A stretch of DNA of 47,833 bases, filler included, from Jimgerdemannia flammicorona (taxonomy: Eukaryota), in the NCBI GenBank assembly GCA_003990765.1. It is 2 parts of 2 records of this genome, joined end to end, with 100 filler letters (N's around TTAATTAATTAA, not from the genome) between each part and the next. Parts side by side here need not be neighbours in the genome. Positions count along the whole stretch, not along the records: positions 1 to 23,872 come from RBNJ01001050.1; 1 more part is not named here. One strand, given 5' to 3'. The translations under genes and the position numbers were made by a program. Below, one piece after another: positions 1 through 36,600 of the stretch. The notes below the pieces were generated by a model that was not told the origin of the DNA, did not search any database, and was given only the letters and a program-made list of their open reading frames with translations. The first letter of the stretch is position 1; every line of letters begins with the position of its first letter.

Positions 1-1252
1 TTATAGTCAAATTTGGCTATATTACAGAGTAAGAGATATACTATCAAATAATAGCTCTATATATACTTTAGCAGAATAGTATAGCTGAGTGATTTAACCA
101 TATAGCTATAGAAATAGTATATATGATAATTAATATAATAGAACTATTATATTCTTATTAGGCTGAGGTTATCAACTTAATAATATATATATATAGCTAG
201 TATATATCTCAAGTACTAAATAAGAAATCTAACAATAATAAATCTGGCAATAATGAGCAATCTAGAAATAATACTAATGATCTTATCTCTGAAGAATTAT
301 GGAGAGAATTTAAGTCAGATATTTTATATCTATATATATTTAGATATAAGACCTATACTCTAAAAAAAGGAAAAAATCAGCATAAATTTGAGTCTAAAAC
401 TAATGAGCATATATTTCTCAGATATGATAAAAAGTTATATAGGTTGTAGAATCTATATAAATATTATATAGTATATATATAGTTCAATAAAAAAGAAAAT
501 CAGAAATTCTATATAAATATATCCATCATAATCTCTATATCTCAGTCAGTACTGATAATATCATCTATGAGTCAGCAACAATAAGTATAATAACTAGTAC
601 CAATCTCTTTAGTAATAAAGCAAAATTATTTTCAACTACTAAATATATCAGAGTTAAGAATAATAGAGATTAAAAATGATAAGATTTCTGATAATAATAA
701 AGAGTCTATTAAAGATAAGAAAAAGTCAAAGTATAAGTCTAGAAATGAGACTCATTCTAATTTAGGAAATTATTAAGATATATTAATAAGATCTAGATAG
801 TAATATAATAAGAACTGCATGAGCTATACTAAAGCATATAAATACATATATATGACAACTTTCAGCAAGCTAAGTATATATAACAAAGCAATAATATCTT
901 CTAATAATAAGAGATAGAAGTAAGCCATAGATGAGAAATATAACTTACTTATCAAAAATAGTACATAAGACTTAGTATTTCTTCCAATCAATTGATAGGC
1001 CATAGAATTATATTGAGTCTATAAAATCAAGTGCAAGAGTGATAGAAGTATAGAATAGTATAAAGCTCATTTTATAGCAAAGAGTTATTTACAAAATTAT
1101 AGTATAGCCTATAATAAGATATTTTTCCTAATATTCAAGCTCACTTCTCTAAGGATACTTCTTGTAATAAGTACTATATATAGCCTAGAAATCTACCAAA
1201 TAGATATAAAGATGGTTTTTTTAAGCAGTGATATAGATATAAAGTTATATAT
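1..1252 (+). mobile_element. Degenerate Ty1/copia retrotransposon, pol region (integrase C-terminal part to RT), left part
   Basis: Decayed copia RT motifs at about 1010-1250 (*VYKIKCKSDRSIE*YKAHFIAKSYLQ; LEIYQIDIKMVFL, cf. WVYKIK..YKARLVAKG and HQMDVKTAFL); very AT-rich with many stops; continues after the Gypsy-1 insertion. Confidence 0.8.
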
Positions 1253-1369
1253 TGTAACATACACAATTGACAATAGAGTACTGGTGACTGCTAAGATCAG
1301 ACGACATAATGGTGTGACAATCAAATAGACAGTCTGACCCATTAGGTGATCATCCCAAAAGAAGACAAG

Positions 1370-2446
1370 ATGATCCGAGCCAAAATGAAGACCATATTAT
1401 TTAAGGAATCATACTCCGCCTCAAGGATCAGCACCAAAGAACCAAGTACCCACCACACAATACCTCCCATTTGCTGAACCAACCAGACCTCCCGCTGCTC
1501 TACCCCTTTGCCTGGCCCAAAGACCCTGATCTTTGAAGCTATCAAGAAGGCCATCTGGTGCCCAGATACTTCCGAACACTTGAACTTCTATACTGAGGAC
1601 CTTGGACACTTTATCAACTACCAGTATATAATGACCCAACAGCTCAAAGACACTACCGAACGAATGACCCTCTGGCATGACTATGAAATCGGACACCGCC
1701 TTCGCAATAAGACTCAAGAAGATGACCAGGAAGACCTCATTGCCGAAATGTTAACCACCAGCTGGCTAATCAAAAGAGCCCTCCATGTCCATCAAATCTT
1801 CTGCCATATTCCCTGGGCTATAGCACACTTGCAAGGAGTAACAGCTGGCAGCCTCTCCTGCCTTTCAACTGAAGATGCTGACTGGATAGAATCTGAAGTA
1901 GCCAACTCTACTGGCAGCAACTGCGTTGCCATAGGAAGCCAACAAACCGAACCTACTCAGCCAGGTTTCCACACCACCCCACTCCGAGACAACCATCAAG
2001 GTCACCTAATAAGTCTTATGGAGATATTTGAAGGACCGCCCATTACCATAGAAGCACCCGTTGGAGCTACCCCAACCATCCACCACCTTGTCAGCCACAA
2101 TTCACACCTCATCATTTGGGAACCAAATCAAGAAGAAGCCCAAGAAGTTCCTGTCTTTAAAGAGGAGGCCCAAGAACTCCAAGGCCCTGCCCCTGAAGAA
2201 ACCCCCTCTGACACTGAAACTGACAAGTCTTCAGAAGAAGAAGAGGAGCAACAGAGAGTCTACCAGTCCTCTGTCCACATTCAAGCTGTTCAAGGGTTGG
2301 AGAATGTTATTGAAGATGACTGGCCACTTTTCTACCCCCTCACCTCTTGGCCGATGCTTCCCCCCTTTGAGGAGAGACATGATGAAGAATAAATCACAAT
2401 CCAGCAAGATTTGCCTGCCACAGACAAAGGGTATTATTTCCTCTAG
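1370..2446 (+). pseudogene. LTR-embedded accessory ORF (5' copy; consensus about 358 aa, acidic C-terminus, unknown function)
   Basis: ATG 1370 to TAG 2446; internal stops at 1475 (TGA) and 2390 (TAA) are sense codons (CGA, GAA) in the 3' LTR copy. Confidence 0.75.
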
Positions 2447-2480
2447 AGTACCACCCATCAGCCATGAGAACCCAGCTTTT

Positions 2481-2690
2481 GTCAGCAAGTCTGAATCCAG
2501 CATTGCTACCCAGTACCACCGTTTTCAGCATTTTGTCAGCAGGTCCAAATTCAGCGTTGCCACCCTCCACAACCATTTCTGGCAACAATCATCGTATCAT
2601 ATCAGCTCATCCGAATCCAGCATTGCTACCCAGTACCACTGTTTTCAGCATTTTGTCAGTAGGTCCGAATCCAGCATTGCTATCCCCTAC
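2481..2690 (+). repeat. Degenerate U3 tandem repeats (about 54-66 bp units), enhancer-like
   Basis: Four copies of a core like GTCAGCAGGTCCGAATCCAGCATTGCTACCC just upstream of the TATA box; repeated in the 3' LTR. Confidence 0.7.
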
Positions 2691-2810
2691 AACTCAATCC
2701 ATAGTAAACAATAGCCTACACTTCGCATCGTGCAAACCAATAGCATAAGTTCGCCACAACGTAGTATACCTTAGCCTTAGTCATGCCCCCTCCCCCATAG
2801 CTAGCAAACT

Positions 2811-2850
2811 TGTATAAATAACCCATATTCTTAGAGTGAATAAACCTCAG
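2811..2850 (+). promoter_or_regulatory. LTR TATA box and polyadenylation signal
   Basis: TGTATAAATAACCCA followed by AGAGTGAATAAACCTCAG; both motifs are also present in the Gypsy-2 LTRs. Confidence 0.65.
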
Positions 2851-3676
2851 CCAGATAGTTTTACAGAGAAAACACACTGCCTCCAAGAGACTGGATAAAT
2901 TCTGAGAACAAGATAACAACCTAGAGCAACAGATTGCTCGGAAGTTTGAGTTAAAGAATTTTCTCTTGCCACGGAAAGGAAACATTACCCGACTGCTGCC
3001 ATTCGACTGCCATTCGAGATTCGAGACCCAGCCAAAGATTAAAGAACCCACGGAACCCAAGTTACCCAGCCAAGGATTCAAGACCCAGAAACCCAAGGAG
3101 ACCCAGCCAAGAATTCTAGACCACGACTGCCATGCATTCAGACTGCCATTCAGACCACACATTCGACTGCCATTCGAGATTCAAGACTCAGAAAACCAAG
3201 GAACCCAAGGATACCCAGCCAAACAAGACCACAGCCTAAGACCCGCCAAGATACTCGAATGACTGCCAAAGACCCAAGTTATCCTGCCCTTTCAAGCTAA
3301 ACAAGACGGACAAACAAGCCGTCAACCTCCATTTTCCCGACCTACTGCGCCACAAACCGCTTTAATTGACTGCATAAAGAGCAAGACCATCAAGCCTGTC
3401 GTCGTCGCTTAAATTCAAGTCCGCCATCATTGCCAAGTTAATCGCTGCCAGGAAACTTAGCCAGCATAATCGCCACTCTTGTCCACTAAACAATTGAGCC
3501 ACTATCTTCAAACGATCTCCCGCTATTATCGATTACCACATGAATCGAACGATCTGTCACATGACCATCGACCCATAACTGTCACGAACGCACTCAGTTA
3601 TCCATCGCATGCTTCACCAAGTGACACATTGAGCTGTGCAGTCGAAGTTCAATATACATAACTGAATGCCACATTT

Positions 3677-3694
3677 TGGGGGCTCAACTGGGAA
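3677..3694 (+). promoter_or_regulatory. Primer-binding site, tRNA-Pro-like
   Basis: TGGGGGCTCAACTGGGAA 3 nt after the LTR; resembles the tRNA-Pro PBS TGGGGGCTCGTCCGGGAT of MLV. Confidence 0.8.
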
Positions 3695-4567
3695 AGTTTT
3701 CAAAAGACTTGATCATTTGGCTCAAGAACCCAGCTATCTACAGTGGAGAACTTAGCAGGACCAAGTTAGCAACCAAACCAGGGGCAGCAACAGCCCTCCT
3801 CAGCAGAAAAGAAAGCCCACACCCTTGTCAGAACAGTAGCTAGGACCCTACTCAATACCAGTAGCCAGAAAACCAAATCAGAAGAAAGAAGTGACCCAGA
3901 TTATGGTTTAACTTCAAGAGAAAGGAGATGACTCAGAGGGCAACCAGAACTGCCCCTTCAGATCCAAGACTTAGGCCAAGAAGAAGAAGAGGATATCCCT
4001 GAGGAGTATCAGACCCTTATCCATAGGAAGAACTCAGACAGAAGTGACTACATAACTACTGTTGTTACTCGAGTCACTCTACTAGACCGAGTATACTTTG
4101 AAACATCAGAGGGAGAAGAGGACTACCATCCATATCAACCAGAGCAAGATGACGATTGGGGATCAGACCATCAAAGGGATGAATTCAACCTATACTATTA
4201 TCCAGACAGCGACACTGACCCACAATAAGACGAATAAGACCTCACTACTTCACAACAGCAAGGGGCAGACGAACTCACTATCAGTTATATCAGTCTGCTC
4301 CCACCATCAGTTACTCGAACTTCAGTACCCTGGTCACTCACACCTCACCACTATCACCAGTCTATCAGAAGATCTCCACCACTACCCAGGACTTCAACTC
4401 CAGCATTAATTAGAAGAGCCAGATTACCCTCACCCTCATCAAGACACCGCCCACTGCCAGCACCACTAGATCATCAAGTACTAGCACTACCACCTTCCCC
4501 ATCACCCCGAGGATCTGCCAGATCCCCTACCCCTGAACAATACTCAGATAGTGAAGACGAGCCAGAC

Positions 4568-7500
4568 ATGAGCTACCTTCAGAAGTTCCATGGTGCAGAC
4601 AATGAAGACATCAAGGAATTCTTTGAAGAAATTGAAGTTCAAGCAGCCGCCAAACAATGGGATGCTGCAAGAAAACTCAGAATTGTGGAGTCGCTCCTGA
4701 GAGGACCAGCCCTACAGAGATATAATCAAGCCAAGTAAGCTGGAGGAGAAATCCATACAGAGGAACTGAATGACAGCCTTCAACCTGATAGGAACCATGT
4801 AGCAAGGTACATGATTTACAAAGCCTGGCTCTGTGCCCAGTTCAATGGACAAGTGCCAACAAGAAGCACAGGAGGCTTTGACCTACATGAGCCAAGCTGC
4901 TAATGAAACTCCCAAGAGTTTCTACTATCGGATTCAAGCTCAAATGATCAAGGCGAACCTTCAACCAGCAGTCCAACTGGCCCTAGCCTCAACTACCTTC
5001 CTCAAAGGCTTATACCCAGAACTCCGAAGGCAAGTTATCAGGATGGGATATCAAAACATTGAACAGCAAGTTGCTGGAGCACAAGGATGTTGGGAAGCAG
5101 ATTATAGACCAGTACAACAAGTACAAGGCTATCCTGAGCCAATCTGAGCTGAAACCCCAAGGATCCGAGGAACAACCATGGAGTAAGAGAATGCCTTCCT
5201 CAGAGCCCAGATAGCCAACTATGAGAACAGCCCAGCACCCACAAATCCGACTCCATTCAGGCAACCACAGCAGCAGCCACCATCAAGAGTTCAAGAAGAC
5301 CCCATGATAATGCTCACTAAGCAAATGAAGGACCTGGCCATCGCGGTTGCCCAGCTAAACAACCAAGGTAAAAGACAACAAGACTACCATCGTGATAACA
5401 GACCAGACTACTGGCAACAAGACAACAGAGGTCCTGCCCCCACACTATCAGCTGCAACTACAGCCTCATCAGCGACTGGTTCCTATGGTCCCACCTGCTT
5501 CAACTGCAGAAATCAAGGCTACATCCAGAGGAATTGTCCAAGGAACCAACCCACCCAGTCCAATGACAGAAATGTCAACCTCTTTCAGGTAGATGAAGAG
5601 ACTCAGGAGATGGAAGAAGAAGCAGCCTGGCTCCATGGTCAAGAAGATGACATCTACCCATACTTCGAGGCTTTTCCATCCAAGGTGACATGGGAAGCTG
5701 CCCCCACGGAGACTAGAGGACAAGGAAGACCATGAAGGAACCCCCCACCTCAACTGCCAGTAACGGTATCCACCGGCAAGCATCTGCAACATGGCCATTC
5801 TTCTTCAGACACTCCACAAGAACAGAAGAAGCGAGTTAGAAGAGATACTCCTGAACCAGAAGCCGGACCATCTAGGACAACCCCCGGCTCTACCCTGCCA
5901 GACCTTGAAGAAGATGAGCATATGAGCATAGAATCTTCAGCTGACGAAATGCCCATCAGGAATGAGAGACTACACTCCAAGGGACTAAGACACCAAAGAA
6001 GCAGCAAGCCCCATGCAGCAGCCTCACTTTGGGAATATATCCGCCTACAGAATGCTGGTCTTACTGTTGAGCAAGTCCTCAAGAATGCACCAGAGGTCAG
6101 GCGAAAATTCCTGAAAGAAGCCAAGGAAGATACCAAGAGACTTCCAGTTCAAGGACCACACACTCAAGAACCTAGCACTATCCACACAGTCCATGAGAGC
6201 CAGTGACATGAACATCAATCTACAAGACTCGCCAATGGAAAAGTGCATGGTGAAAATGCCAGAATTCTCGTCGATACTGGAGCAGCAGTATGCATCATCA
6301 CCCAAAGAATGTTGGAGCGAATTGGATGGGGAATAGATGAAGGAACCAAAGCAAGAGTTATCATGGCCGACGGATCAGCTTCCACACCCCTTGGACTTGT
6401 CAGAGACATCCCTATTTAAGTTAGAAAGGCCCGCCTCAATGTACCCAAAGCCATCATGACCCCCACAACCTCCTATGACCTGATCCTGGGAACTGACTGG
6501 TTAAGCCAAGTGGGAGCCAATGTAGATATCAAGAAACAACTCCTGGTCTTCTCTACTTATGGATAGAAGTACAAGGTGCTCATTGACTCGAAAGGATTAT
6601 CTAAAAAAATGAATCAAGCCTCAGAAACAGAATGGCAAGGACACGGCGACACCCCCACTACTACTGAGGATGAAAGCAAGGCCAATTTCCTACAAGAACT
6701 AGGAAGCGATTTTGATGCCCCAAGGGACCAAGAAAGTGAACAAGAAGACTCTTTCATTGGAGTTATTGGTGTTGAAGGCCTGGAAGAAAGCATTGATAGA
6801 GCCATTAATGCAAGGGCAGCACTTGAGTTTGCAGGACCTTCTGCTCAACCACCACCACCACTGGTAGAAAATCAGATCATGCGAGCCTTTTGTCGAGGCA
6901 TATGTGAACACTTCATCAGCTTCCACTCACCAAGAGATGATTGCAGCAATTGCCAAATCCTGGATCTCAAGAAGGTTCTAATGCCAGAAATTGATGATAA
7001 GGACAAATTGAAGCAAGCACCATCCCACAGCCGAATATAACCTCCAACCCCGAAGACCTTCAAAAAGACCTATAAGGAAGGACAGAAGATCCTTGCCCAC
7101 CAAACATTTGAGTCCCTTACCATTGAAGGAGAAAGCAACAGCTCCTACACTATCACCCGGGCCCTCCAGATCACACAGCCCACCTATGACAAGTATCGGA
7201 AGAGATTCCCTACCAGTAGGGAGGTCAAACAGTAAAATGAAGACTTTGTCAAGAAGGGACATTGTGATTGTGGAAAAACCTTTACCTGCCACTGGTGTGA
7301 ACATTGAGATGTTCACCTCAGCGAAGATATCTACAAGAGCCAAGTCAAGAGAAAGGATCCCACCCTGCAAGAACCTCGAATTCGCTGGGCCTATCGGAAG
7401 TGCAAAGAAATCAACCATGAAGGAGATTGCAAGTTCAAGGGCAAGACCTCTATCTGGGACCTACCATTGGAAGTTCTTGCCATCATTCGCTGGTACTGTC

Positions 7501-8567
7501 ACCCTCATCAAGGAAAAGAAGGTGTCAACCTTGCCTTCATCCTTATGGAAGCTCTGGACCCTCTAGGAAAGACTGGATTCAATTACACAAGAAACTCAAA
7601 GATGGGAGCTCACTGGCCTTTCTTCAAACCAGAGCACATAGACTTCTCACCTACAATGGCAATAGCTGAAGTGCCATTTCTCAAAGCTCAACCAATTATC
7701 CAGGTCAAGCTGCTTTCCCCCTGGGCACAGCCATCTCTTGCACAAACAGAAGGATCAGTTGGTTATGATCTCTGCCTCTCCTACCAAGCAAGAATCCGAC
7801 CCAGAAGTACCAGGACATTTGACCTACAGATTGCACTCGCTATACCACCTGGGCATTATGGACAATTGGCCTCAAGATCCTCATTGGCAACCAAAGGAGT
7901 CACAGTAGAAGGAGGAGTCATCGATCAGGACTACCGAGGTCCCTTGAAGGTCATTATCCGCAATTCTAGTAGAACCAGCCAATTCTTCAGTTCTATGGAA
8001 GCCATCTGCCAAATCCTGTTTATCAAGACATCATAGCTGACCATCCAAGAGGTAGACCAACTAGAAGATACCAACAGAGGACAAGGAGGCTTTGGAAGCA
8101 CCAATAGAAATCTATGGACACCACCTATCAAGATGCATTTGGCAACAGTTGCTCAATTCCGACAAATGAGGCCCCATATCTGCCGCATAATCCGAGCAAG
8201 AGAAGACATCCTCCTGCAGCCCTACCAGCAAAAAGGCCTAGATGTGTACCTACCAGTAGAAGCAAACAACTTGATATTTGCACTATCACTGGAGCTTCAA
8301 AAGGAATACCACATCCTCCTGGCTGAAGAACAAATTCATGACCAGATGTCACCGATCCACATCCCTATCAGAAACTCGGGCTTCGAAGTGATAACTATCC
8401 CCAAGGGAACAACACTGGGATATTTCGAACCACTGATAGACACCTATGAGGAAGAAGTCTTCAAATTCTTGGGAAACGGCAAGTCCTCTCCAGTGAGACT
8501 GACAGTACCAGGGAGGAAGACTCAGCAAATTCAGCAATCAAAGCTGTTGACATCAAGACAACTCTAA
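4568..8567 (+). pseudogene. gag: Gypsy-1 Gag-protease-dUTPase polyprotein (disrupted)
   Basis: Capsid-like start MSYLQKFHGADNEDIKEFF; zinc knuckle CFNCRNQGYIQRNC; aspartic protease ILVDTGAAV (6273-6281) and YDLILGTDWL; one frame from about 4860 to 8567 with C>T-type stops. An N-terminal extension upstream of 4568 is possible. Confidence 0.88.
7690..8106 (+). pseudogene. dut: Trimeric-type dUTPase domain of Gypsy-1
   Basis: All five motifs visible: GSVGYDL, LASRSSLA, GGVIDQDYRG, ICQIL, RGQGGFGST; one internal TAG at 8034. Confidence 0.93.
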
Positions 8568-10006
8568 CCAAGGACCAGCAACAACAGATACAGGAGTTGA
8601 TAGAGGAGTATAAAGATATATTTACCACTATATATGATAACTTCCCACCATATCAATACGGAGAACACTCTATACATACTGGAGATGTAAGACCAATCCA
8701 ACAACGACCCTACCGAACACCACATCATCTGATTGAATTCGAACAACAACACATAGATGAAATGCTATGAAATGGAGTCATCAGACCATCATCAAGCCCC
8801 TGGGCTTTACCAGCAATAATAGTACCAAAGAAAGGAGGATGGAGATTAGTCATGGATTTCAGAAAACTCAATAAAGTCACCACAGAAGATGCCTATCCAC
8901 TGCCAAGAATTGATGACCTCATCAATGCCCTCGGAAAAGCCAAATACATGACCACTACTGACCAGTTCCAAGGATTCCAAGTAATACCCATTGCCAAAGA
9001 AGATATCTGCAAGACGGCCTTCATCACTAGATGAGGACAGTATGAATACCTACGAATGCCCTTTGGACTCTGCAATGCACCTGCCTCATTCCAACGAATG
9101 ATGAACTATGTCTACCGGGACCTCATTGGAAGAAATGTACTAGTGTACATAGATGATGTAATCATCTACTCTGAGACATTCAAGCAGCATTTGCAAGACC
9201 TCCGCGAAGTATTCAATACCATTCGAAATTCAGGACTCAGACTCAATGCCAAGAAGTGCTTCTTCGGAAAACATCAAGTCGAATATCTGGGATATGTTGT
9301 CTCAGCTCAAGGAACACATGCCAACCCCTGCAAGGTGGAGAAAGTCAAGAACTACCCAACCTCGACCTCAGCAAAGGAGACCCTATCCTTCCTTATGCTG
9401 GCATCCTACTATCAACGATTCATCCCAAGGTTTTCAGATAAGGCAGCACCTCTCTGAGATATCTCCAAGAAGGACCAACCATTCTACTGGAAAAAGGAAC
9501 AACAAAAGTCATTCGACCTACTCAAGAAGGCCCTTACCAAAGCCCCTGTCCTGGTGCGACCAGACTTTGGCAAACCATTCATCCTGGCAACTGATGCCTC
9601 AGCCTTCGGACTTGGATCAATTCTGTCTCAACAAGATGACCAGAAGAGAGAGCATGTTATCAAATATGCTAGCAAGGCCACAAACGAAACACAAGCGAAC
9701 TATGGAGCTACTAAGTTGGAATGCCTAGCAGTAGTTTGGGCTGTGGACCACTTCTGACACTATCTCTTGGGAAAGAGATTCACCCTCATCACTGACCATC
9801 AAGCTCTACAATGGTTGTTCAACAAGCCGGAGCCCTCAGGAATCTTCACTAGATGGATCATGTCCCTGCAAGAATATTAGTTCACTATTGTCTACAAGAA
9901 AGGTGCTAAGAATTCCAATATTGATACCCTGTCAAGAATCCTGCGAAACCAACAAGAAGGGAAGGAGCCCCCACAAGAGAAGGCTGCTTCCTGCTCACCC
10001 AAATGA
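8478..10006 (+). pseudogene. pol: Gypsy-1 reverse transcriptase + RNase H
   Basis: DFRKLNKVT, YPLPRIDD, MPFGLCNAPASFQ, YIDD (9146-9157), FILATDAS, LECLAVVWA; in the -1 frame relative to the dUTPase ORF. Confidence 0.95.
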
Positions 10007-11223
10007 ACCAAGAATTGCGCCTCACCCTCACCTGGAGCCTGCACCATAGAAGCTTCAAGAAAGGAATTCAACCAGCCTACAAGTTGTTTATCCAAAGGAA
10101 TTTCAAGAAATTCCAAGAAGGCAATGGCAAACTTTGGAGAGTAGAGGGAGAGCAGTATATCTGAGTTCCAAGAGAAGAAGAAATATTGAAGATCCTGACA
10201 ACAAATCATGACCAAAATGCACACTGAGGAATTGGTGCCACAATTGCAAGAATCAAGAAGTGATACTAGTGGCCCAAGATGAGAAAACAAATTTCAACAC
10301 ACATTCAACAATGTGATACCTGCCAAAGATACCGACAAAAGCCTACCGACAGAGCACCATTAATACCAATTGCAGCACCAGCTGGAGTCTTTCAAAGACT
10401 AGGAATAGACATTATTGGACCCCTACCAGTAACCAGCCAAGGAAGACGCTACATCCTCACTATCGAAGACCACCTGACAAAATGGCCTGAAGCCTTTGCC
10501 ATCGAGACTGCCGATGCCCAGACAATTATTGGGATCCTGTATGATGAAATTTTCAGCTGCCATGGTGTGCCCAAGGAAATCATTACAGACCAAGGCTGAG
10601 AATTCGTCAACCAAGCCATGAAGACCTTTGCAAGCAACTTCAAGATCAAGCTATGACCAACAACAGCCTACCACCCACAGGCAAATGGACTTACTGAACG
10701 AATGAACCAGACCATCAAGCGAGGTCTCAGTAGAACCGGAGATCAACTAAACTGAGATATCTATCTATCAGCAATTCTGTTCAGCATCCGTACCTCTAAG
10801 GCAACCGCTACCCAACAGACCCCCTTCTATTTGGTGTATGGCCAAGAAACACAAGATCCTACCAAACCAGTCCAGCTAGATCTGTCAAAACAAGTCACAG
10901 AAGAGATCACCCAGTTACATGACATATGCCAGCAGGCATGAGGATTTATCACCAAGGCACAAGAACGACAAAAGAGGTACTACGACTGCAAAGCCAACCT
11001 CGAACCCCTGCTCATTAGACAAAAGGTTCTGGTGTACCGTACCATCATAGAAGGAAATTGGAGTGCCAAGCTTGAACCAAAATGGGAAGGCCCCTATCTC
11101 ATACACCAAGTATTCTCGAACCACACTTATCAACTCAAGACCTTGGATGGAGCTATACTCAAGACCAAGATACATCGCAACCACATAAGACTCTACTATT
11201 CAAGAGAAGCAAAACGCATTTGA
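10003..11223 (+). pseudogene. Gypsy-1 integrase (separate frame from RT-RH)
   Basis: ATG 10003 (MNQ...), HHCC (HDQNAH...CDTC), DIIGPLP, ITDQG, NGLTERMNQT, GPY motif (KWEGPY); no chromodomain seen. Confidence 0.9.
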
Positions 11224-11548
11224 ACAATTCTGTTCACTCTGTCTGTGTCATCTCTGCTGGAGATATGATGGATGTTTCACTCGGAACTCAAGAAAGCCAA
11301 CAATGTTGGAACCAGACTCAAGCCCATCCACGTGACAGACATTGTTACTAAGAAATTGCCTCGGATTACAAGTAATACTATTTCCGATGGGTTTGAACCC
11401 CCAGCCGCGACTATGGGAGCCCTCACCCTAGACAAGGATGGCCAGTCCTCACAAATGCGCCAGCATTCTGCTCGTCCCTGGAGTTAAGACCACCCAACTC
11501 TGTGTAACCCTCACTGCCGAGAATGGCTCTAATTTTGCAAAGGGCAGA

Positions 11549-13969
11549 TGTGACATACACAATTGACAATGGAGTACTGGTGACTGCTAAGATCAGATGA
11601 CATAATGGCATGACAATCAAATAGACAGTCTGACCCATTAGGTGATCATCCCAAAAGAAGACAAGATGATCTGAGCCAAAATGAAGACCACATTATTTAA
11701 GAAACCATACTCCACCTCAAGGATTGGCACCAAAGAACCAAGTACCCACCACACAATACCTCCCATTCACCGAACCAACCAGACCTCCCACCACTTTACC
11801 CCTTTGCCTGGTCCAAAGACCCTAATCTTTGAAGCTATCAAGAAGGCCATCTGGCGCCCAGATACTTCCAAACACTTGAACTTCTACACTGAGGACCTTG
11901 GACACTTCATCAACTATCGGTATATAATGACCCAATAGCTCAAAGACACTACCAAATGAATGACCCTCTGGCATGACTATGAAATCGGACACCACCTTTA
12001 CAATAAGACTCAAGAAGGTGACCAGGAAGACCTCATTGCTGAAATGTTAACCACCAGCCGGCTAATCAAGAGAGCCCTCTGTGTCCATCAAATCTTCCAC
12101 CATATTCCCTGGGCTATAGCACACTTGCAAAGAGTAACAGCTGGCAGCCTCTCCTGCCTTTCAACTGAAGATGCTGACTGGATAGAATCTGAAGTAGCCA
12201 ACTCTACTGACAGCAACCATGTTACCGTAGGAAGCCAACAAACCGAACCTACTCAGCCAGGTTTCCACACCACCCCACTCCAAGACAACCATCAAGGTCA
12301 CCTAATGAGTCTTATGGAGATATTTGAAGGACTGCCCATTACTATAGAAGTACCCGTTGGAGCTACCCCAACCACCCACCACCTTGTCAGCCACAATTCA
12401 CACCTCATCATTTGGGAACCAAATCAAGAAGAAGCCCAAGAAGTTCCTGTCTTTAAAGAGGAGGCCCAAGAACTCCAAGGCCCTACCCCTGAAGAAACCC
12501 CCTCTGACACTGAAACTGACGAGTCTTCAGAAGAAAAAGAGGAGCAACAGAGAGTCTACCAGTCCTCTGTCCACATCCAAGCTATTCAAGGGTTGGAGAA
12601 TGTTGTTGAAGATGACTGGCCACTTTTCTACCCCCTCACCTCTTGGCCAGTGCTTCCCCCCTTTGAGGAGAGATATGATGAAGAAGAAATCACAACCCAG
12701 CAAGATTTGCCCACTATGGACGAAGGGTACTATTTCCTCTAGAGTACCGCCCATCAGCTGTGAGAACCCAGCTTTTGTCAGCAAGTCTGAATCCAGCGTT
12801 GCTACCCAGTACTACCATTTTCAGCATTTTGTCAGCAGGTCCGAATTCAGCATTGCCACCCTCCACAACTGTTTCTGGCAACAATCATCATATTATGTCA
12901 GCTCATCCGAATCCAGCGTTGCTACCCAGTACCACCATTTTCAGAATTTTGTCAGCAGGTCCGAATCCAGCATTGCTATCCCCTACAACTCAATCTGTAG
13001 TAAACAATAGCCTGCATCTCGCATCATGCAAACCAATAGCATAAGTTCACCACAACATAGTATACCTTAGCCTTAGTCGCACCCCCTCTCCCATAGCTAG
13101 CAAACTTGTATTAATAATCCATATTCTTAGAGTGAATAAACCTCAGCCAGATAGTTTTACAGAGAAAACCCACTGCCTCTAAGAGACCAGATAAATTCTG
13201 AGAACAAGATAACAACCTAGAGCAACGGATCGCTCGGAAGTTTGAGTTAAAGAATTTTCTCTTGCCACAGAAAGAAAATGTTACCCGACTGCTGCCATTC
13301 GACCGCTATTCAAGATTCAAGACCCAGCCAAGGATTAAAGAACCCACGGAACCCAAGTTACCCAGCCAAGGATTCAAGACCCAGAAACCCAAGGAGACCC
13401 AGCCAAGGATTCTAGACCATGACCGCCATGCATTCAGACTGCCATTTGGACTGCGCATTTGACCACCATTCAAGATTCAAGACCCGGAAAACCAAGGAAC
13501 CCAAGGATACCCAGCCAAACAAGACTGCAGCCTAAGACCCACCAAGATACTTGAACGACTGCCAAAGACCCAAGTTATCCCGCCCTTTCAAGCTAAACAA
13601 GATGGACGAGTGAGCCATCAACCTCTGTTTTCCTGACCTACTGCACCACGAACCACTTTAATTGACCACATAAAGAGCAAGACCATCAAGCCCGTCATCG
13701 TCACTTAAATTCAAGTCCGCCATCATCGCCAAGTTAATCGCCACCAGGAAACTTAGCCAGCATAATCACCGCTCTTGTCTACTAAACAATTGAGCCACCA
13801 TCGTCGAATGATCTCCTGCTATTATCGATTACTGCACGAATCGAACGACCCGTCACATGACCATCGACCCATAACCATTATGAATGCACTCAGTTATCCA
13901 TCGCGTGCTTCACCAAGTGATATATTGAGCTGTGCAGTCGAAGTTCAATATACATAACCGAATGCCACA
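11549..13969 (+). repeat. Gypsy-1 3' LTR
   Basis: TGTGACATACAC...AATGCCACA, preceded by purine-rich AAAGGGCAGA (putative PPT). Confidence 0.97.
11666..12742 (+). pseudogene. LTR-embedded accessory ORF (3' copy)
   Basis: Stops at 11672, 11936 and 11957 are CGA/CAG/CGA in the 5' copy. Confidence 0.75.
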
Positions 13970-15628
13970 ATATATATTTGCCAGCTATAAGAATATAAGC
14001 TGAATAATAATCAAAATAATCTTATATATAAACTATACAAAGAATTATATAGCATTAAATAGGCAGTCTATCTGTAAAATAGAAAAATCTCCTTAATAAT
14101 AGCTTTATATACTGTAAAGTAGATATATATATATATATATATTTATTACTATACTGACAGAGTGACTTTTATAGATATATATATATAGGTAGATAATATA
14201 ATTATTATTGTGATAAAAAACAGACTTAACAGAGTTAAAGAAGTCCTGTATAAGAAATTCAAGATAATAGATATATGTAGGTGATATATCCTTTCTTTTG
14301 AGCATATCTATTATATATTATATATCTCTTATAGTTAACTTATATTTAAGCTATCCTAGAATACTTCAATTTGAGTAAATACAAGCCTGTTGATACTTCT
14401 ATAGAGACTTCAGTAAAGTTAAAGAAGCTCAATATTATACTAAAGATAAACAAAAATGACAATATTCTTTATCAGTAAGTAATTAGGTCTCTTATATATC
14501 TTATACTAGAAATTAGGTCTAATATCTCATATATTATAAAGATAGTATAGTACTCATTCTGCTATAATAATTTACATTAGAGTACTATTAAGAGGATTTT
14601 TAAATATATTAAAGATATGATATACTATATACTTACTCTTAGTAGATTGAGTGAAAGTAATAAGAGTAAGAATAATAATATATAACTATTTAATATATAT
14701 AAAACTAATTGGGCTAGAGACTTAGATGACCATCAATCTACAACCAGATATCTATTTCAAATTGATAATAAAAGGTTTACTGTTTTATAACAAATATATA
14801 AGTAGAGCTTAATAGTAATATCATTTATATAAGTAGAGTATCAAGTATTATTTACAATAACAAAGAAAGCCATTTGATAATGCCAGCTATTAAAGGAGCT
14901 CAGCTTTGATCAGGAGCACTCTATGCTCATCTATCAGGACAATCAATTGACCATAGTAATAGTAAAGAACTCTATTCATTATACTAAAATAAAGCACATT
15001 GATATATAGCATTATTATATAAGAGAATATATGCAAAATGAGGCTATATACCTAGAATACCTCTCCATAGAACAAATGATAGCAGATTCACTTACAAAAG
15101 TCCTTCCAAAGATGAAGTTCAATATATGTATAAAAGAAATAAATCTTATAGATACTTATAACAGAATAATGAACTATATATCAGTAATAGATAATCACAG
15201 GACATTTCATAATGAAAAAGAAGCAGAAAAACAATGCATTACATCTCTCTACATTTCTCAAACATTGCATTATTATTCACTAGTTCCTCTTCTTCTTCTA
15301 CATTTGAGTTTTTTCTACTACTAGAACCTATCTATATTCTTCATTTTCACTATGGTTTCTTATGCTTTAAGCATGGGTAGATAGCATTCTTTTAGTACAT
15401 TCGCAGTCATTTTTCAGTTATTTGCTGGGTTTCATTACATTCTTACATTCCTGCTTACATTGCATTCTTGCATATTATCTCGTTGAGCGGGAGTGTTGAA
15501 ATTATTACATCTCGATTATGTGTGGCTTATATGTAACTACGTCATCTTTGATTACATCACTGATTCCAATGCGCTATCCGGAATAATAAACAACGCTCTT
15601 CTCCAGTATCCACTCCATATTCACAACA
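13970..15628 (+). mobile_element. Degenerate Ty1/copia retrotransposon, right part (RT C-terminus, RNase H, 3' LTR)
   Basis: Copia RNase H remnants NWARDLDDHQSTT, IYQDNQ, KIKHIDI*HYYIRE, EQMIADSLTK. Confidence 0.85.
15494..15628 (+). repeat. Putative short copia 3' LTR
   Basis: Purine tract GAGCGGGAG then TGTTG...CAACA (135 bp) with internal AATAAA; the partner LTR is not in the window. Confidence 0.55.
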
Positions 15629-23872: not shown

Positions 23873-23972
23873 NNNNNNNNNNNNNNNNNNNNNNNNNNNN
23901 NNNNNNNNNNNNNNNNTTAATTAATTAANNNNNNNNNNNNNNNNNNNNNNNNNNNNNNNNNNNNNNNNNNNN
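23873..23972. other. Assembly gap with artificial linker
   Basis: 100-nt run of N with central TTAATTAATTAA (stops in all six frames). Confidence 0.97.
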
Positions 23973-24325: not shown

Positions 24326-27300
24326 CCCCCCCCTTGCAGTTCAGTGGCCCTTTTCAGCCACCAAGCTCATAGGCAGTGCAGCCTCTTAGGAAAGTCCACA
24401 AGGCCTAGACCTCCCTGAGTCACCAGTGCTGCAAGAGTATCCCAACTGATCTGGGATCTCCTCTCTGCCCAAATCTAATCTCTGGCCAGCTTTGTTAGTC
24501 TCTTTACCATCCAAGCTGGGATATCTAAGTGATAGGCCACATACCACAGCTTGGGGAACCAGTAGACATTCAAAATTGACACCTGACCTACTAGGGAGAT
24601 GTGGTGACCTTTCTAACCTCAAAGGGCCTCCCCCCACATGGTCACCTTCCTTTCCTACTATACACATGGCAAAACAGATCTATATATAGAAAGGAAGATG
24701 CCCAGATAATGTACCACCTCACCCATGAGGGCAATTATTCCAATGATATCCTCTCCCACTAGCCCATTCCCCAAAACTATTATCTCACACTTATGCCAGT
24801 TGAGTTTCACCCCAGAGTATACCTCATACTATTTCACCATATCTTTAAGTACCTCAATATCTGCTACTGATCCAAGTCCAACTACTATATCATCTGCAAA
24901 GGCCCCCACCTTCCACACCACACCATATATAGAGAGCCCCATCACCTTCTATAATATCCTATCCATAAAGGTTCCAATAAAAGAGCATAAAGGATAGAAG
25001 ACAGTGGGTCTCTCTGAGGAACTCCTCTCTCCAGGGGAAATGCCAAACCTCAGTGATCATTACACATCAGTGCAGCCCTACTGCCCTCCAACAGATTCAA
25101 TATAGCAGCTCAAAATTGTGAGGGAATACTGATTCTATCTAGCACCTTTCCTAGCCATACCTGCTGAACATAGTCATAGGCCTTCTCCTAGTCCAAAAAG
25201 ATCAGTCTTTCATCCAATCCACAAGCCTGTGTCCCTTCAATAATGCCATACACCCAGGTAGTCCCATCCCTGATATGTCTGCCTCCAATAAAGCCCTGCT
25301 GCTCCTCACTCAGCACCTGTTGGGCAACCTTCTGTAGCCTTGCAACAATCACCTTAGTCACCATCTTCCTGTCCATATCCAGAAGCATGATTGGCCTCCA
25401 GTTCTTCCAGTCCTCTCTCCTCTCCTTGTCTTTGTACAATAAGGCCACCAGCCCCAAGTTCTGCTCTCCAACCCACTTACTATTCAGAAGAACATGGTCA
25501 CAGAGGGCAGCCATCTCTCCTAACACTCCAGAGACCTTCGCCATCTTCTTCCAGAAGTCCCAAGGTAACCCATCCTCTCCTGATACTGTCCCAATCTTTG
25601 TTGTCACAAGGACTCTCTGGATCTCCTCCTCCTGGACTGGTATGATCAGGTCACCAAGTCCCTCTACTTGTAGTGATTCCCACTTCTCCAGCATATCACC
25701 AATTGTCTCTTCATCTGCACCCCCTTCCTCCTCACTCCACAAACCCCTCCATCTCTCCTTTAGTACTCCCAAGATCTGTTGCATGCCATACACCATTTCC
25801 CCCTCAGCATCAAAGACTCTATCCCATTGATGTCACACCCTCCTAGCTTGAAGGAGTCTAGACAAGTATCTAGTAGGCCACTCTCCCTCCTCAAGCCCCT
25901 GCTACTATAGTCTGGCAGCTATTCCTTTCATTTGAATCTCCTCCTTCTCTCTCAATATTCATTATAGCTCCACTACCTCTAATTTTGCCTACTCTAACCT
26001 CCAATCCTCCCCCTCTTTAGAAGAAAGCAAATCAGCTCATTCTATCTGCAATCTAATCAGTCTATTAGAGGTACACCTTACTTGCTTCCTTCTTTACCTC
26101 CCAGCCTCCCTACCAGCTCCTCCCCAATAAACCCTCATAGCCTCCTTCAACCTCATCCAACAGATACTCACAGAAGAACCCTCATGTATCTAGTTATTAA
26201 TCTTTACTTGAATATCCTCCACCCATAGGTCCCACAATGCCTTCTCAGCCAGCAGAGAGGAGTTAAGATACCAATGTCCAGGTCTATCTCCACTCTCCCC
26301 AAACTGCCTCTGCTCTAATAGCTCCCAGTGATTGGACCACAGGCACTATGCCACCTCCAAAGTCTCCCAAACATCAACACCCCAACATTTGGCTGTCAGA
26401 ATCCAGTCAATTCTCATGCCCAATCCATTCACCCAATGCATGTAGACCCTTGTATTACCCCACCATATTCTGCCCATATCTCCTAAGAAGCTAAGGTTCT
26501 CCACCTCCTCTCATGCATTCAGACCACTACTCCTTCTGCTGGCATACCTCTCTCCATCAGTTCTATCCACCTGTAGATCCTGCACCATATTAAAATCACC
26601 ACCCAGAATATCTACTCCTTCCTCTAAGAGAATACCCTCCTCCAGCAGATCTCTAATCCATGCAATCCTCTCACCCCTAACCACAGGGCAATAGCAGGAG
26701 CCAACCCTCACTGATTCCCACTCAGGCTGATACTATTCTCCCCAGACCAAATGGTCACCCCAGCTCCTAATGCTCTCTAAATCTCCTCTACCCTTCCTCA
26801 TCAGAATTGCCACTTTACCAATCCAAGCAGTAGCTCTACCCCATTCACTAGTCCACTCTATCTGATTCTCCTCACCCTCACACTATATATCCTATAGTAA
26901 AAAGAGATCAGCCTCCAATCCCTTAAGCCAAGTAAAAATGTTCTTATACTATCTGGATCTCTATAACCCATTCACATTCAGAGAGAAAATGTTAGTTATA
27001 CTGTTTATAAGAAATACTGTTGATTAATAATCACATCCTCTACAAATCCACATTCAACTCCTCTTGTGCCAAGTCCAAGTTATGTTCTGCAGCCAGTGCT
27101 CTCTCTTCAGCTGCCTGTACCTCCAACCCTATCAGAAGTTCAGCCAACTCCCCATCTTCTTTTTCCTTGAAGTCCATATGATATTCCAGGCATGCCTCCT
27201 ATCAGAGCTACAACCCATAATGCTCTGCCCAACAGTAAGCAGCTTGCTCACCAGCAACAACTGCCAGCTCAGCCTCCCTCACCTTATCAACCTCATAACC

Positions 27301-31860: not shown

Positions 31861-33091
31861 TATGACAGACCACAAAACATAGCAATCTTGAAACTCAATC
31901 AGGTGATGTGAATATTAGTCTAGCATAGCAATTAGCAACTATTGCTGCAGAGAATATATAAATAACCCAGATAGCTAAAGAAAGGAAAAACCCTGACAGT
32001 GGCTATCACTCTGACAGTGGCTGTCACCCTGATAGTAGCTGTCACCCAGACAGTGAATGTTACCCCATAAATAGCACTCTATAGTTAGTCAGATAGCAAC
32101 CAAGATAGCAACCACAATATATAAATTACCCCATAGACAAGAGAGAATAAACCTCAGTTCCAAAATATAAAGCAAAAGACAAATCTGCCTACTATACTTC
32201 AAGAGATATACCTGCCAAAAGCCACTTGATCCAGGAAGAATTGCAACACTTAGGAGAAATGCCTGCTCTATAGCTACTACTAGGAGATTGTGAGCTTTAC
32301 CTCTTTCCCACTCTGGTCCACTTTCTGATATAAAGAATGAGTCTATTTTTGGTTTGCTTGCTAGATAAGCCTGAAGATTTGCTGCCCAAGTTCAAGGAAG
32401 AACTTTGCCACCAGTGGAAACCACCAATTCAGAAGAATCTGTGCCATCATATTCCCAGAAGAGCCACTGATTCAGAAGAATCCATACCATCTAAGTAGTA
32501 TTCTCAGTTGAAGCCAAATCCATGTCAACTGCCATTTTCAAGTTATCCACATTCCTAGTTGAAGCCACTGATTCAGGAAGAATCTATGATATCCAAGTCA
32601 TCTGAGTTATCTATGCCATCCAAGTTATTCGTTGTTTCCAGTGAGCTCATGTAATTGAGTTATCTGCCAAATCGCATAAGAAGTCTGCCTACACTACATA
32701 GAGATCATCGCACCAAGATCGTCATGCTATATAGAGATCATCACATCAAGATCATCATGCTATACAGAGATCATCGCACCAAGACTGTCACCCAGAAATC
32801 ACATACTTTTGGAGATTGTCTCACTACACAAAATTGTGCCATTCCCAGTTGACCCAAGAAGGAAATCCATTCACACACAAATCGCTACTATACCCAGAGA
32901 ACTATCCTAATTAGGAAATAGACATACAAATTACTTACAGATATCTAACTTTGACTATTATACCACTAAATACCAAGGACCTTAAGAATCTTAGAACATT
33001 TTATTGCTTTTTGACAAAGTAACTGGGGGCTCAAGCCAAACTACATCAACTCCCAATCTTGTAATTTGCTCTATTGAGCTGGCACATTACA
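31861..33091 (+). repeat. Gypsy-2 5' LTR (1231 bp)
   Basis: TATGACAGACC (TG mutated to TA)...CACATTACA; one more 18-bp unit than the 3' LTR. Confidence 0.95.
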
Positions 33092-33093
33092 TT

Positions 33094-33111
33094 TGAGGGC
33101 TCAACCAGGAA
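33094..33111 (+). promoter_or_regulatory. Primer-binding site, tRNA-Pro-like
   Basis: TGAGGGCTCAACCAGGAA, a G>A-decayed version of the Gypsy-1 PBS. Confidence 0.75.
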
Positions 33112-33625
33112 ATATTTCAAATCAATATAACTTTTCAGCTCACAAGAACCCACAGCCAAACTGGATACATTTGATACAACACTAATCTCTGCCACTATAG
33201 AAGAACCAGTTATCACTAGCATCTGGACAGAAAGAGAAATAATCACCTCAAGACTTACCAATTACCCAGCATCAGAAGAATCCCAACTAGAACCAGAAGG
33301 CAGTATAGCCCGAAATCCCCAACCAGATCAACTGGACAGTACAGACAGCCCTGCTAGAAATTTTGAAGAACTTGCACAAGAACTAGAAGATCTTATCACA
33401 CGAACCTGAGATCTTACAGACAGACACCCCATATCAGTCTCACCAATTTCACCAATAGAACCCTTACCACAACTCCTTGCAGAATCAGAAGTAGCTCCTA
33501 CCAGAATACCTAGGCCTACTCTACTTCATCCAAGGTTTAGAACACTATCCTCAGGATACCCAAGCACCCCTACCTTCAGTGACAGCTCAGAAAGTGAACC
33601 AGAACTGGAAGAAAGTGACAATGAA

Positions 33626-36600
33626 ATGGCCACCTCATTGCCAACCTTTGCAGAAGACCCAGAAGAAGACTCCAGAGAATTCCTTGATGGAATTGAAGGA
33701 ATCACAGCTCTAAGGAACTTCTCAGATGAAAGAAAAATCACCATCTACAAGGCCCAGCTCAGAGAACCAGCCAGAGGGATTTTCTATCAAACAGCAGACA
33801 ATCCAGATTCAGAACTGGCAAGACAGATACAAGCTGCAATGTCCAAGGAGCAAGAATATGAGGTCATGGTCCACTGGCTCATTGAAAAGTATGCAGGAAA
33901 TGAAACCTGCCACAAGGCTCAAGAATCCATTATGAAGATGAAGATGAATCTTAGAGAATCACCCAGGGCCTTCTTCACAAGAATCCAGAAGAGAATGCAT
34001 ACAGCTGGATTCAATGCCACCAACCAAGACATCATAGGTCCAATGACCTTCATGAATGGAATTCTGCCAAACATTGCCCAGCATGTCCGCACCCTAGGCA
34101 TCAGAAGGTCTGAGAAGCAAGTAGATGTAGCCCAAGGATTCTTTGATATCAGATAAGGAACTATCTGGAGTGATCATGACAAGAAAGAAGACAAGGAAGA
34201 CATCCTGGTCAAGGCCCTACAAGGACTCCTTCAAGAATAAGAAAGGTTTGAAGAAAGAAGACCAGCCAAAGAAGAAAAGAAGGACAGAAGTGAAATCCAA
34301 GACCTCAGCTCCAAGTTGGACTAATTGGTTGGACAAATTGAAAAACTCACCACATGCAAAAATTGGAGTTACCAAGACAACAGAGGATACCCACCACAGA
34401 GAAGTCAAGATTATCCACTAAGAGATAGTAGGAATTACCAGCAAGAAGAAAGAAGATACCCTGTCCAAGACAGAGCTCAAGTCCAATGCTTCCATTATAG
34501 ATAATTCAGACACTATGCCACTGAATGTAATAACAAAAGAAGTGACCAAAGGGACTCAGAACCACTGAACTGAAGGAATGACACTCAGTACAAGAAGACT
34601 AAAGCCCATCCTGTTGAAGATTATGAGGAAGCAAGCAACAGTGAAGACTATAGTGATCTAGACTTATACCCTACCAAGGTTATTACCTGAAAAACAGTCT
34701 ACCCAGCAGAGAAGAGGAAGAGACCTATTTGAAGGCCATTTAGGAATATCAGCAGAAGAATCATTCAAGAAGAGGATGAAAAACATGAAGAAGAATAAGT
34801 AGAAACACCTCTCTGAACCCCCTCACCTTTTGTCTCTGAAACAAATGAGCTGCTACCAGAAGATGAGAACCTGTTGCCCCAAAGCCCAAGAAGAAGTACT
34901 CCCCAAAGACCATGCCTAGAGACATCTACAATGAAGCCTGGCAGAAGATTCAAGAGGCTAAGATGGAAGTCTCTCTCCTGCAGTTCCTGTAACTGACACC
35001 AGCTGGAGTCTGAAACAAATTGCTGAGAACAACCAGGTCTAGCACTGGCCAAGTCCCAATCCCACAGCAAGAACCAGCCTCCATCCCTGTCCAAGCAGCC
35101 AAGAGACATGTCAGCACCTACTTACATAGAGATATTGGAGGACAAAAAGTGAAAATTCTCATAGACACTGGAGCAGCTATCTGTGTCATTACCAAAAAAT
35201 TCCTGAATACCCTCCAATGGCCCATTGATGGACCATCCAACCTCAGCATCATAGTAGCAGATGGAGCCCAAACTCAACCCCTGGGAGAAGTACGAAATAT
35301 CACTATTTCCTTAAGACACATTCAGTTTTCTATTCCCAAAGCCATTGTCACCAAAGCTGTCACCTATGACATGATCCTTGGCACCAACTGGATGAAGGAA
35401 ATGAATGCAGTTGTTAATATCAGTCAACAAGTACTCAAGTTTGACTACTAAGGCAAAAAGTACAGAGTTAAGATGACCAGCTCTGAGTAATCAAAGAAGA
35501 AGAAGAAGGTTACTATCTAAGAGGAATATACCAGCAGTGAAGAGTCTACCATAGAAGAAGAAGAGGAGTCTGAAGATGGAAATGATCCCAGACTCAATCC
35601 CCAAATTAACCTGGTGGATGATAGACCAGAAGACAATGTATGGGCCAAGAACACTATCCCTATCACCATTAGAGCCATTGCAGGAGAAATCAAAGGATGT
35701 CCTACCTATCTCAAGAGACACAAGTGTCCTCCAAGATAATGGGAACAAGAAAATCACCTGGCACAGCCTGCCCAGAATGCAGAAGGAAGAAGAAGAAATA
35801 CAGACATGTTCCAGAAACACCTGCAACTGAAGCTGCAGAAGTATAAGCAATTTGGAGATAAGAATCATCTGAGGAAGAAGAAACTCCTGACCAAGAAGTT
35901 CCTGAAGGAGAAACACCCAAAGAAGAAGAGGTCCCTGAACTCATTCCCTGGGATGATCCTTGATGGACACCATCCAAAGATAATGACCCTTGGAATATGG
36001 AAGAAGAATCCAGCATAATCACCATTATTCCCAAGAAAGAAACTCACCAAGAGAGAGCTTTTCAGTTAGGAAGATGCCCACACCAAATGGTCTTCTACTC
36101 TCCCCGAGACTGCTGCTATCAGTGCCATCTACTAGACCAACAAGAAAGACAGAGACCCCAGAGACCAGAATCCCCAAACACACTTGCACAGTCAACTATC
36201 TTCCAAGAAATTACTACTAAGTTATAAAGCAGATTCAGGGGATAAGGCTTCTTTACTCAGACAGAAATATATCCCCTGTCTACTCTTCCATCCACCTATG
36301 ACCAAGATGGATACTGATTCCCAAGACAATAAGAGATCAATGACCAAAAACATCATTTTCAAGCTATGGGATATTGCAACCATAGAAGACACCCTGACTG
36401 CTGAGACTGCAGGCATCAGAAGATCCATCTCAGTCATGATGTTGCAGTTCATACCTTGAAGAGAAGAGATAACTGAAGCCAGATCTGAAAAAGCCAGATC
36501 TGAAAGAACTAGACCAAAAAGTCAGGAAGAAGAACCCTTAAGATCTATGATTTAGGAGAAGACATCCTAGCTCTCATCAGGCATGCAACCCACCAGAGAT

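Follow-up and report, generated by a model that had tools for sequence, protein, structure and literature searches.

Can the long terminal repeat (LTR) of a fungal retrotransposon contain a protein-coding gene? Retrotransposon LTRs are usually treated as non-coding, dated as neutral sequence and not searched for genes. The question is raised by a 47,833-nucleotide stretch of DNA from Jimgerdemannia flammicorona (GenBank assembly GCA_003990765.1), referred to as the window. Positions 1253-13969 are occupied by a complete, decayed, dUTPase-bearing Ty3/gypsy element, named family A here, and an initial annotation had placed a gene of about 358 codons in the U3 region of its LTR. Our analysis indicates that this frame is almost certainly a dedicated accessory gene, and that the fungal element to which it belongs is a Ty3/gypsy retrotransposon outside the chromoviruses. 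The U3 gene was previously unnamed, and its layout is known from some complex retroviruses.

The statement that both 2421-bp LTRs carry the open reading frame (ORF) is borne out by their gap-free alignment. All five stop codons interrupting it, two in the 5' LTR and three in the 3' LTR (matching 5' positions 1376, 1640 and 1661), are sense codons in the opposite LTR, as had been reported. The further conclusion that the ORF was open at insertion probably holds for the stop-free frame but not for its start: the conserved start codon at position 1460 is not intact in either window LTR, so the element probably inserted without it, and both window copies of the gene are dead. The frame ends with the stop codon at 2444-2446. 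Both the tandem repeats and the single canonical TATA box of the LTR are located downstream of it, so its assignment to U3 is the natural reading, in agreement with the initial annotation. Its longest stop-free run comprises 304 codons, whereas none of 1000 dinucleotide shuffles of the LTR exceeded 241. Between positions 1346 and 2443, stops fixed in at least 80% of 31 copies (both window LTRs and 29 of 30 loci, the self-hit being left out) are absent from this frame and number 18, 19, 8, 22 and 15 in the other five. While the frame stands, its length needs to be amended: the relatives that retain the N-terminus all start with a Met-Pro mapping to 1460, the family B and C translations described below have no in-frame Met upstream of the start, and the coding sequence probably comprises 328 codons from 1460. 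Among 57 distinct family A copies (60 loci minus five duplicates plus the window LTR pair), position 1460 is a start codon in 49 and is lost in eight, including both window LTRs; the upstream in-frame ATGs at 1370 and 1385 are present in 44 and 53 copies, respectively, and could still serve as starts in family A. Sixteen of the 54 copies spanning the frame are stop-free from 1460 and eight from 1370, with half of the copy set chosen by protein likeness.

Family A is represented by 1027 DNA candidates, which is not a copy number, and the LTR-start pattern has 121 exact matches, 41 of them preceded by the polypurine tract. Classification of 53 distinct LTR loci gave nine solo LTRs with target duplications, nine 5' LTRs, 21 3' LTRs, 13 unclassed cases and one other. 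The gene is thus carried by solo LTRs, as the initial annotation had supposed, but these do not spread it by themselves, as solo LTRs are recombination leftovers and not self-spreading. Indels shared by two or more of the 57 copies number three in the 1074-nt frame (two of 6 nt, and one of 4 nt located about 22 codons from the end in two copies), two, each 1 nt long, in the 117 nt upstream of it, and 29 in the 457 nt that follow it, of which 26 are not multiples of three. A comparison of non-synonymous and synonymous changes (pN/pS) across LTR copies, proposed at the outset as a check, revealed a purifying pattern. After masking of CpG codons and subtraction of the diversity within groups, comparisons among three family A subgroups, comprising 11, 11 and 4 of the 57 copies, gave net transition pN/pS ratios of 0.46 (0.17-1.44), 0.26 (0.09-0.60) and 0.22 (0.07-0.43), compared with 1.2-2.7 in shifted frames. 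Family C (10 of 25 copies) against its variant (five copies) gave 0.23 (0.10-0.50), and shifted frames over all comparisons gave 1.2-2.9; uncorrected values were 0.15-0.28. For 1370-1459, with 24 codons, the intervals were unbounded. Purifying selection on the U3 frame is supported by these comparisons, and the combination of frameshifts and neutral substitution named beforehand as evidence against a gene was not seen across the copies. Present in most family copies and conserved as a protein, the frame qualifies as a conserved additional ORF.

Further evidence comes from homologues. The U3 protein has three close relatives at 74-77% identity, and a profile search of 1.84 billion representatives returned eight hits, down to 27-33% identity (E values to 8e-24). 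Two other gypsy families of this genome, B and C, carry homologues that are about 30% identical. Family B is a chromovirus with a chromodomain (PF00385, E 8.8e-13) at the integrase C-terminus. Its homologue lies in the internal region, with the polypurine tract and the LTR following directly on the stop codon in 23 of 30 loci, while six loci, mostly at contig ends, have no match and one has a spurious match. In family C, the homologue lies wholly within the 1.5-kb LTR, and at least five of 25 loci are solo LTRs with target duplications. The family C integrase is nearer to that of family A, and the family C variant has a dUTPase between protease and reverse transcriptase (RT). Two metagenome contigs among 248 pattern matches also contain a homologue, L156 with the gene before the polypurine tract and L157 with a TATA-ORF-TATA layout and no purine tract evident by eye. 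The position between pol and the 3' LTR is found only in family B and L156, and that inside the LTR in families A and C; every homologue with visible context belongs to an LTR element. No relative was confirmed among 58 pattern matches in viral contigs or 586 in a first metagenome scan, and a weak search among proteins of 600-2000 residues gave no homologue. A more distant metagenome branch (P0016, P0021) is 23-30% identical and has no close copy in this genome. In the chromovirus family B (L091, L097, L099, L109), the dUTPase precedes the protease, an order not shared by families A, C and D, and the window itself holds a decayed RT-RNase H-integrase piece akin to family B at 45914-47663, split by a 49-nt T run.

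How did the same gene come to reside in such different elements? RNase H identity is 48-53% between A and C, 36-38% between A and B and 36-42% between B and C, and the corresponding values for integrase are 41-43%, 32% and 28-29%. The ORF is 36-49% identical between B and C and 30-33% identical between A and either of them. Thus, pol groups A with C, whereas the ORF pairs B with C. As the ORF is as conserved between B and C as their RT (39-45%), across the chromovirus boundary, simple descent is unlikely. In addition, families A and B share 256 bp at about 84% identity right after integrase, which shows that the 3' ends of these elements recombine. Judging from these distances, we consider it likely that the gene has been swapped between lineages by recombination. 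The mobile unit would comprise a TATA box, a short leader and the ORF, and several gypsy lineages carry this cassette at their 3' end. It is found either directly before the polypurine tract or inside U3, and we infer that one position would turn into the other when the plus-strand priming site shifts. Within the shared 256-bp segment, a short frame of about 70 codons reads alike in families A and B; RNA folding of this segment is no better than that of shuffles (z -0.8).

Transcripts that begin at the main start site do not cover the U3 of a 5' or solo LTR, a problem that a separate promoter would solve. Since U3 lies upstream of this site, a promoter of its own is the most likely source of transcripts of the gene. 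A canonical TATA box is located 71 nt before the start in family B, 86 nt in family C, 88 nt in the family C variant, 80 nt in L156 and 65 nt in L157, that is at -65 to -88 in all five representatives outside family A, against a background of four matches in 30,605 nt (0.5% per 40 nt). This box is present in 28 of 30 family B loci (the other two are cut short), where it has the same sequence as the family B LTR box, and occurs as TATAAAAG in 18 of 25 family C loci. Family A has the variant box TATTTAAG at -62, which is nearly invariant among copies, and no box at such a distance from the ATGs at 1370 or 1385. The conserved spacing makes transcription from an own promoter reasonably probable, less so in family A. 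The gene would then give rise to a short mRNA whether it sits in a 5', a 3' or a solo LTR, and solo LTRs might express it if the upstream box works. One sequencing run (RNA by guess, contigs) yielded pieces over parts of the ORF with a depth peak near 2825; it is uninformative on start, strand and level and was not used. Palindromes similar to TGACGTCA and CACGTG recur near both promoters (L125, ~2110-2140; L066, ~2360-2400); family C has them within the ORF tail as well. These palindromes include CpG and may be methylation-sensitive sites for host factors.

The conserved part of the protein spans about 215 residues, with a core, encoded up to about position 2120, that is predicted to be mostly helical with a small sheet at its end. 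The N-terminus is basic, and Arg-rich in most members. In all eight members examined, the protein ends in an acidic tail (14-32 D/E versus 1-4 K/R), which is unalignable across families, of low complexity and rich in aromatic and Leu residues. None of the eight has a membrane segment (highest 19-residue hydropathy 0.29-1.07), and the protein is therefore not env-like. The tail contains a DLIxF motif in five of the eight, all from families B and C; the motif is absent from both family A members and L157. No match was found in Pfam, gag and pol families included (best E 0.015), in PHROGs and NCBIfam (best E 0.06-0.09) or among PDB sequences up to E 10, and the protein Atlas gave no usable match (best value 0.87, to hypothetical clusters). 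After a useless first model with a predicted local distance difference test score (pLDDT) of 35, a middling structure model was obtained (pLDDT 57, predicted template modelling score 0.51). With this model, the Foldseek check proposed earlier gave no hit with E <0.001 against PDB and viral structures, and a wide VIA-align search reached a Z score of 3.8 at best, with residues past 161 barely covered. Such blank family and fold searches do not show that the fold is new. A metal site suggested by His/Glu motifs was dropped, as one His is Asn in family C.

What could this protein do for its element? As the best overall explanation, we tentatively propose, with its chances just short of even, a self-promoted accessory cassette for a trans-acting activator or anti-silencing factor. 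The protein would act in trans in the nucleus, as an activator of the acidic class or as an anti-silencing factor, and would raise or protect the transcription of its element in a host presumed to methylate CpG in repeats. The helical core and the basic N-terminus would contact DNA or chromatin, and the acidic aromatic tail would recruit host factors. This function, suggested by anatomy and analogy, is possible though somewhat doubtful. Of the accessory factor proposed initially, the real protein-coding accessory gene, wholly in U3, is confirmed, while the role as a factor stays at the level of the proposal made here. Several observations weigh against our explanation. Family A lacks a canonical upstream TATA box, possessing the variant box only, and retains two conserved upstream in-frame ATGs. 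The five TATA-bearing lineages are related and do not represent independent events, so that the upstream TATA box is one conserved trait and not five tests. The downstream region used as indel control contains indel-prone tandem repeats, one of the three family A pN/pS intervals includes 1, and ratios within groups likewise fall short of 1 (0.33-0.60), so part of the selection signal may come from mutation context. The pol tree is unrooted, was built without reference clades and flags long branches, and exchange between lineages fits poorly with an activator, a protein that one would expect to remain adapted to the promoter of its own element. Lastly, no DNA-binding fold was recognised with the middling model (pLDDT 57), and acidic tails are common in disordered regions.

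Other explanations have to be weighed against the activator or anti-silencing cassette. That the frame is no gene at all, having arisen from base composition or from a decayed gag or pol piece, can practically be dismissed. The strand is poor in T and G, which lowers the stop frequency, and both window copies are broken, but the shuffles, the contrast in fixed stops, the signs of selection and the lack of a match to gag or pol families argue for a gene, and protein-level conservation across families, with homologues at about 30% identity, has already refuted this possibility. A real accessory gene acting after transcription, in RNA export, suppression of RNA silencing, particle assembly or nuclear import of the integration complex, would account for the Arg-rich N-terminus of most members, and its sharing across unrelated gypsy lineages suits a host-directed or general role better than a promoter-specific one. 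Such roles are listed as candidates for extra ORFs (PMC7264820; this and the other papers cited by PMC number are represented here by excerpts, unless stated otherwise). We nevertheless regard it as rather unlikely, as no RNA-binding family or fold was matched in the searches made and the conserved acidic aromatic tail would not be needed by an RNA binder. The DLIxF motif in the tail of five of the eight members might also point to a Nef-like adaptor, which would recruit clathrin or autophagy machinery to remove a restriction factor or to move particles, the motif resembling what we take to be a clathrin box. Acidic activation domains have motifs similar to DLIxF, however, and with the motif missing from both family A members and L157 and no membrane segment present, an adaptor is quite improbable.

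The remaining alternatives concern the expression of the gene and the beneficiary of its product. The protein could be made from a spliced mRNA starting at the main LTR promoter, from the 3' copy only, in the manner common to nef and env-like ORFs, in which case the upstream boxes would be incidental and solo LTRs silent. Third ORFs are typically expressed from spliced messages (PMC5408684), and the variant box and upstream ATGs of family A would agree with this. A canonical TATA box at constant spacing in five of five non-A representatives, 28 of 30 family B loci and 18 of 25 family C loci, together with the identity of the upstream and LTR boxes in family B, renders the spliced message unlikely. 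An autonomous cassette that moves between elements could also have no role in the transposition cycle. It would then be a selfish passenger, for instance a gene for poison or addiction, or else a gene captured from a host or virus and retained because it benefits the host; element D of the window, a closer relative of the family A element, has no clear homologue, which would be in line with this. Yet all homologues of visible context reside in LTR elements, the eight hits among 1.84 billion representatives and the weak search of longer proteins contained no homologue outside such elements, and no partner gene was seen, so that we deem a passenger very unlikely.

Parallels to the activator or anti-silencing cassette exist in other systems. 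The initial annotation had compared the frame with mouse mammary tumour virus (MMTV) sag and human immunodeficiency virus (HIV) nef, and of this comparison the position held up; the U3 protein has no membrane segment, and no sequence or fold match was seen. As in MMTV, the whole ORF is located in U3 (here inferred from the TATA position), and both MMTV and the family A element have a dUTPase. In MMTV, sag can be expressed from additional U3 promoters that precede the main one (PMC12789967, PMC9412291). Sag is a type II membrane superantigen, whereas the U3 protein has no membrane segment; the family A host is a fungus, the element has no env, and no sequence or fold link to MMTV was detected. 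More generally, no Pfam or PDB sequence match indicated homology to MMTV Sag, HIV Nef or foamy virus Tas, and fold searches with the middling model gave nothing clear. Foamy virus Tas is made from an internal promoter, and its C-terminal acidic activation domain is poorly conserved in sequence (PMC517496, PMC12789967). The tas/bet unit shares with our candidate the 3' accessory gene with its own, here putative, promoter, the acidic C-terminus and the layout of family B; no homology was detected, the unit lies inside the LTR in families A and C, and the likeness is one of layout only. Extra ORFs of plant and fungal elements, described between pol and the 3' LTR, include env-like ORFs, Grande gene23 and those of RIRE2, Retand and the fungal Boty, the gene23 product being nuclear and expressed from its own promoter (PMC7264820). 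Like the U3 gene, the plant ORFs are conserved, of unknown function and near the 3' end, but in that excerpt the ORFs in sense orientation are env-like and have membrane segments, the one with its own promoter runs antisense, and none is described in an LTR. In bdelloid LTR retrotransposons, the same ORF3 types occur in unrelated lineages and are exchanged between elements (PMC5408684), and a dUTPase lies between protease and RT as well. The bdelloid ORF3 products, as described there, are recognisable enzymes or fusion proteins that are internal and spliced, whereas the U3 family matches nothing known and extends into the LTR. VANC is likewise an accessory protein, encoded by VANDAL transposons, which are methylated and contain internal tandem repeats (PMC6719617), but these are plant DNA transposons, no homology was detected, and VANC is a functional analogue for our proposal by analogy only. 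Fungal Ty3/gypsy elements with a dUTPase between protease and RT are known (PMC2864245, PMC6431247), and a figure legend mentions an additional ORF of unknown function in some fungal elements. A gene inside an LTR of a fungus is absent from the excerpts of PMC3248453, PMC10787394, PMC2864245, PMC6431247 and PMC11117352, and no paper on a gene within a fungal retrotransposon LTR was found in the open-licence literature, a scope outside which Repbase, subscription papers and the PMC2864245 supplements fall.

A protein under purifying selection fills almost half of this LTR, so U3 is shaped by selection during the active life of the element, and solo LTRs may be genes. Counter-silencing factors encoded by transposons are few: a 2019 review counted three, all from plants (PMC6719617, in the excerpt available), and the U3 family is a compact, high-copy candidate for such a factor in a fungus that presumably methylates CpG. 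The states inside the LTR and before the polypurine tract, occurring within one gene family, illustrate how a U3 gene such as MMTV sag could arise. In the most far-reaching form of our proposal, a self-contained promoter-plus-gene cassette would be traded between chromoviral and non-chromoviral gypsy lineages, slipping in and out of the LTR, and hundreds of solo LTRs would be independent expression units for a trans-acting activator or anti-silencer of new fold. The family would then be a fungal retrotransposon counterpart of complex-retrovirus regulation, able to act even once the element body has been deleted; this full scenario we consider unlikely.

The features of the family A element are collected in Table 1. 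LTRs with TG...CA ends, a target-site duplication, a primer-binding site and a polypurine tract are all present, and the order of protease, RT, RNase H and integrase is that of Ty3/gypsy elements. A chromodomain has neither room nor a motif after position 11222 in the translation inspected by eye, the family B integrase C-terminus aligns to family A over residues 7-172 only and not over the chromodomain (215-268), and the family A element is non-chromoviral. We take its primer-binding site to match tRNA-Pro. A Pfam search with 5226-5732 from the gag region gave no match, and Rfam detected nothing above chance across the element. Family A prefers ATAT-like 4-mers as target sites, and the insertion site in the window (1-1252) is a heavily decayed AT-rich stretch with a copia-type RT by eye and no CpG remaining. 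The two LTRs differ at 182 positions, 176 of them transitions, of which 123 are at CpG and 22 at TpCpG. This pattern fits methylation-driven decay, and the same counts led us to reject, in the case of this element, repeat-induced point mutation directed at CpA or TpCpG. Pieces of cytosine methylases (four matches) are present in the genome, as is a fungal-specific transcription factor family (44 matches among 50 candidates scored). Between protease and dUTPase, a long insert (6600-7740) contains Cys/His clusters and a weak F-box-like match (E 0.03); the spacer of element D is similar.

Table 1. Positions of the family A element and its U3 reading frame in the window.
Feature	Position	Strand	Remarks
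Target-site duplication ATAT, 4 bp	left 1249..1252, right 13970-13973	+	flanks LTR pair
5' LTR	1253..3673	+	2421 bp, TG...CA ends
U3 frame from first ATG, 358 codons, 5' copy	1370..2446	+	stops at 1475 and 2390
TATA-like box TATTTAAG, candidate ORF promoter	1398..1405	+	non-canonical; 62 nt before 1460
Probable true coding sequence, 328 codons	1460..2446	+	start codon not intact in 5' copy
Tandem repeats, period 54	2473..2682	+	between ORF and main TATA box
Main LTR TATA box TATAAATA	2813..2820	+	only canonical box of the LTR; altered in 3' LTR
Primer-binding site, starts TGGGGGCTC	3677..3694	+	
gag region, decayed	4572..5900	+	zinc-knuckle-like motif near 5496-5540, by eye
Aspartic protease	6225..6560	+	PF13975, E 5.5e-9
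dUTPase	7740..8030	+	PF00692, E 9e-23; between protease and RT
RT and RNase H	8774..9931	+	with stops; motifs read in translation
Integrase	10270..11222	+	end ~330 nt before 3' LTR
256-bp segment after integrase	11208..11462	+	~84% identical to same position in chromovirus family B
Polypurine tract	11537..11548	+	directly before 3' LTR
3' LTR	11549..13969	+	2421 bp, 92.5% identity with 5' LTR
U3 frame in 3' LTR	11666..12742	+	stops at 11672, 11936 and 11957; conserved start position 11756 not intact

The second gypsy element of the window, element D (31863-41823), has 1230-bp LTRs, a dUTPase and an RT 56% identical to that of family A; no homologue of the U3 ORF was detected in its LTR. Between its integrase and polypurine tract lies a 168-codon ORF (40064-40570) that is conserved in 20 loci, has an acidic tail and is preceded at -77, inside the integrase end, by a TATATAAG or TATTTAAG box. 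This ORF gave no match to the U3 family in the window scan, and its profile score of 22.2, compared with a maximum of 20.5 in 100 shuffles (probability 3%), is a hint only of homology. The element D LTR (32089-32700, 40850-41420) shows long stretches with few stops in one plus-strand frame and a 100-codon minus-strand frame, and may hold a different decayed ORF. The two contigs of the window are joined by a run of N with a TTAATTAATTAA linker (23873-23972), so its right half is not a neighbour of its left. A decayed RT is found on the minus strand at 25188-25830, and a host UbiA prenyltransferase gene with a short intron lies in CpG-normal DNA on the minus strand at 17024-~18060.
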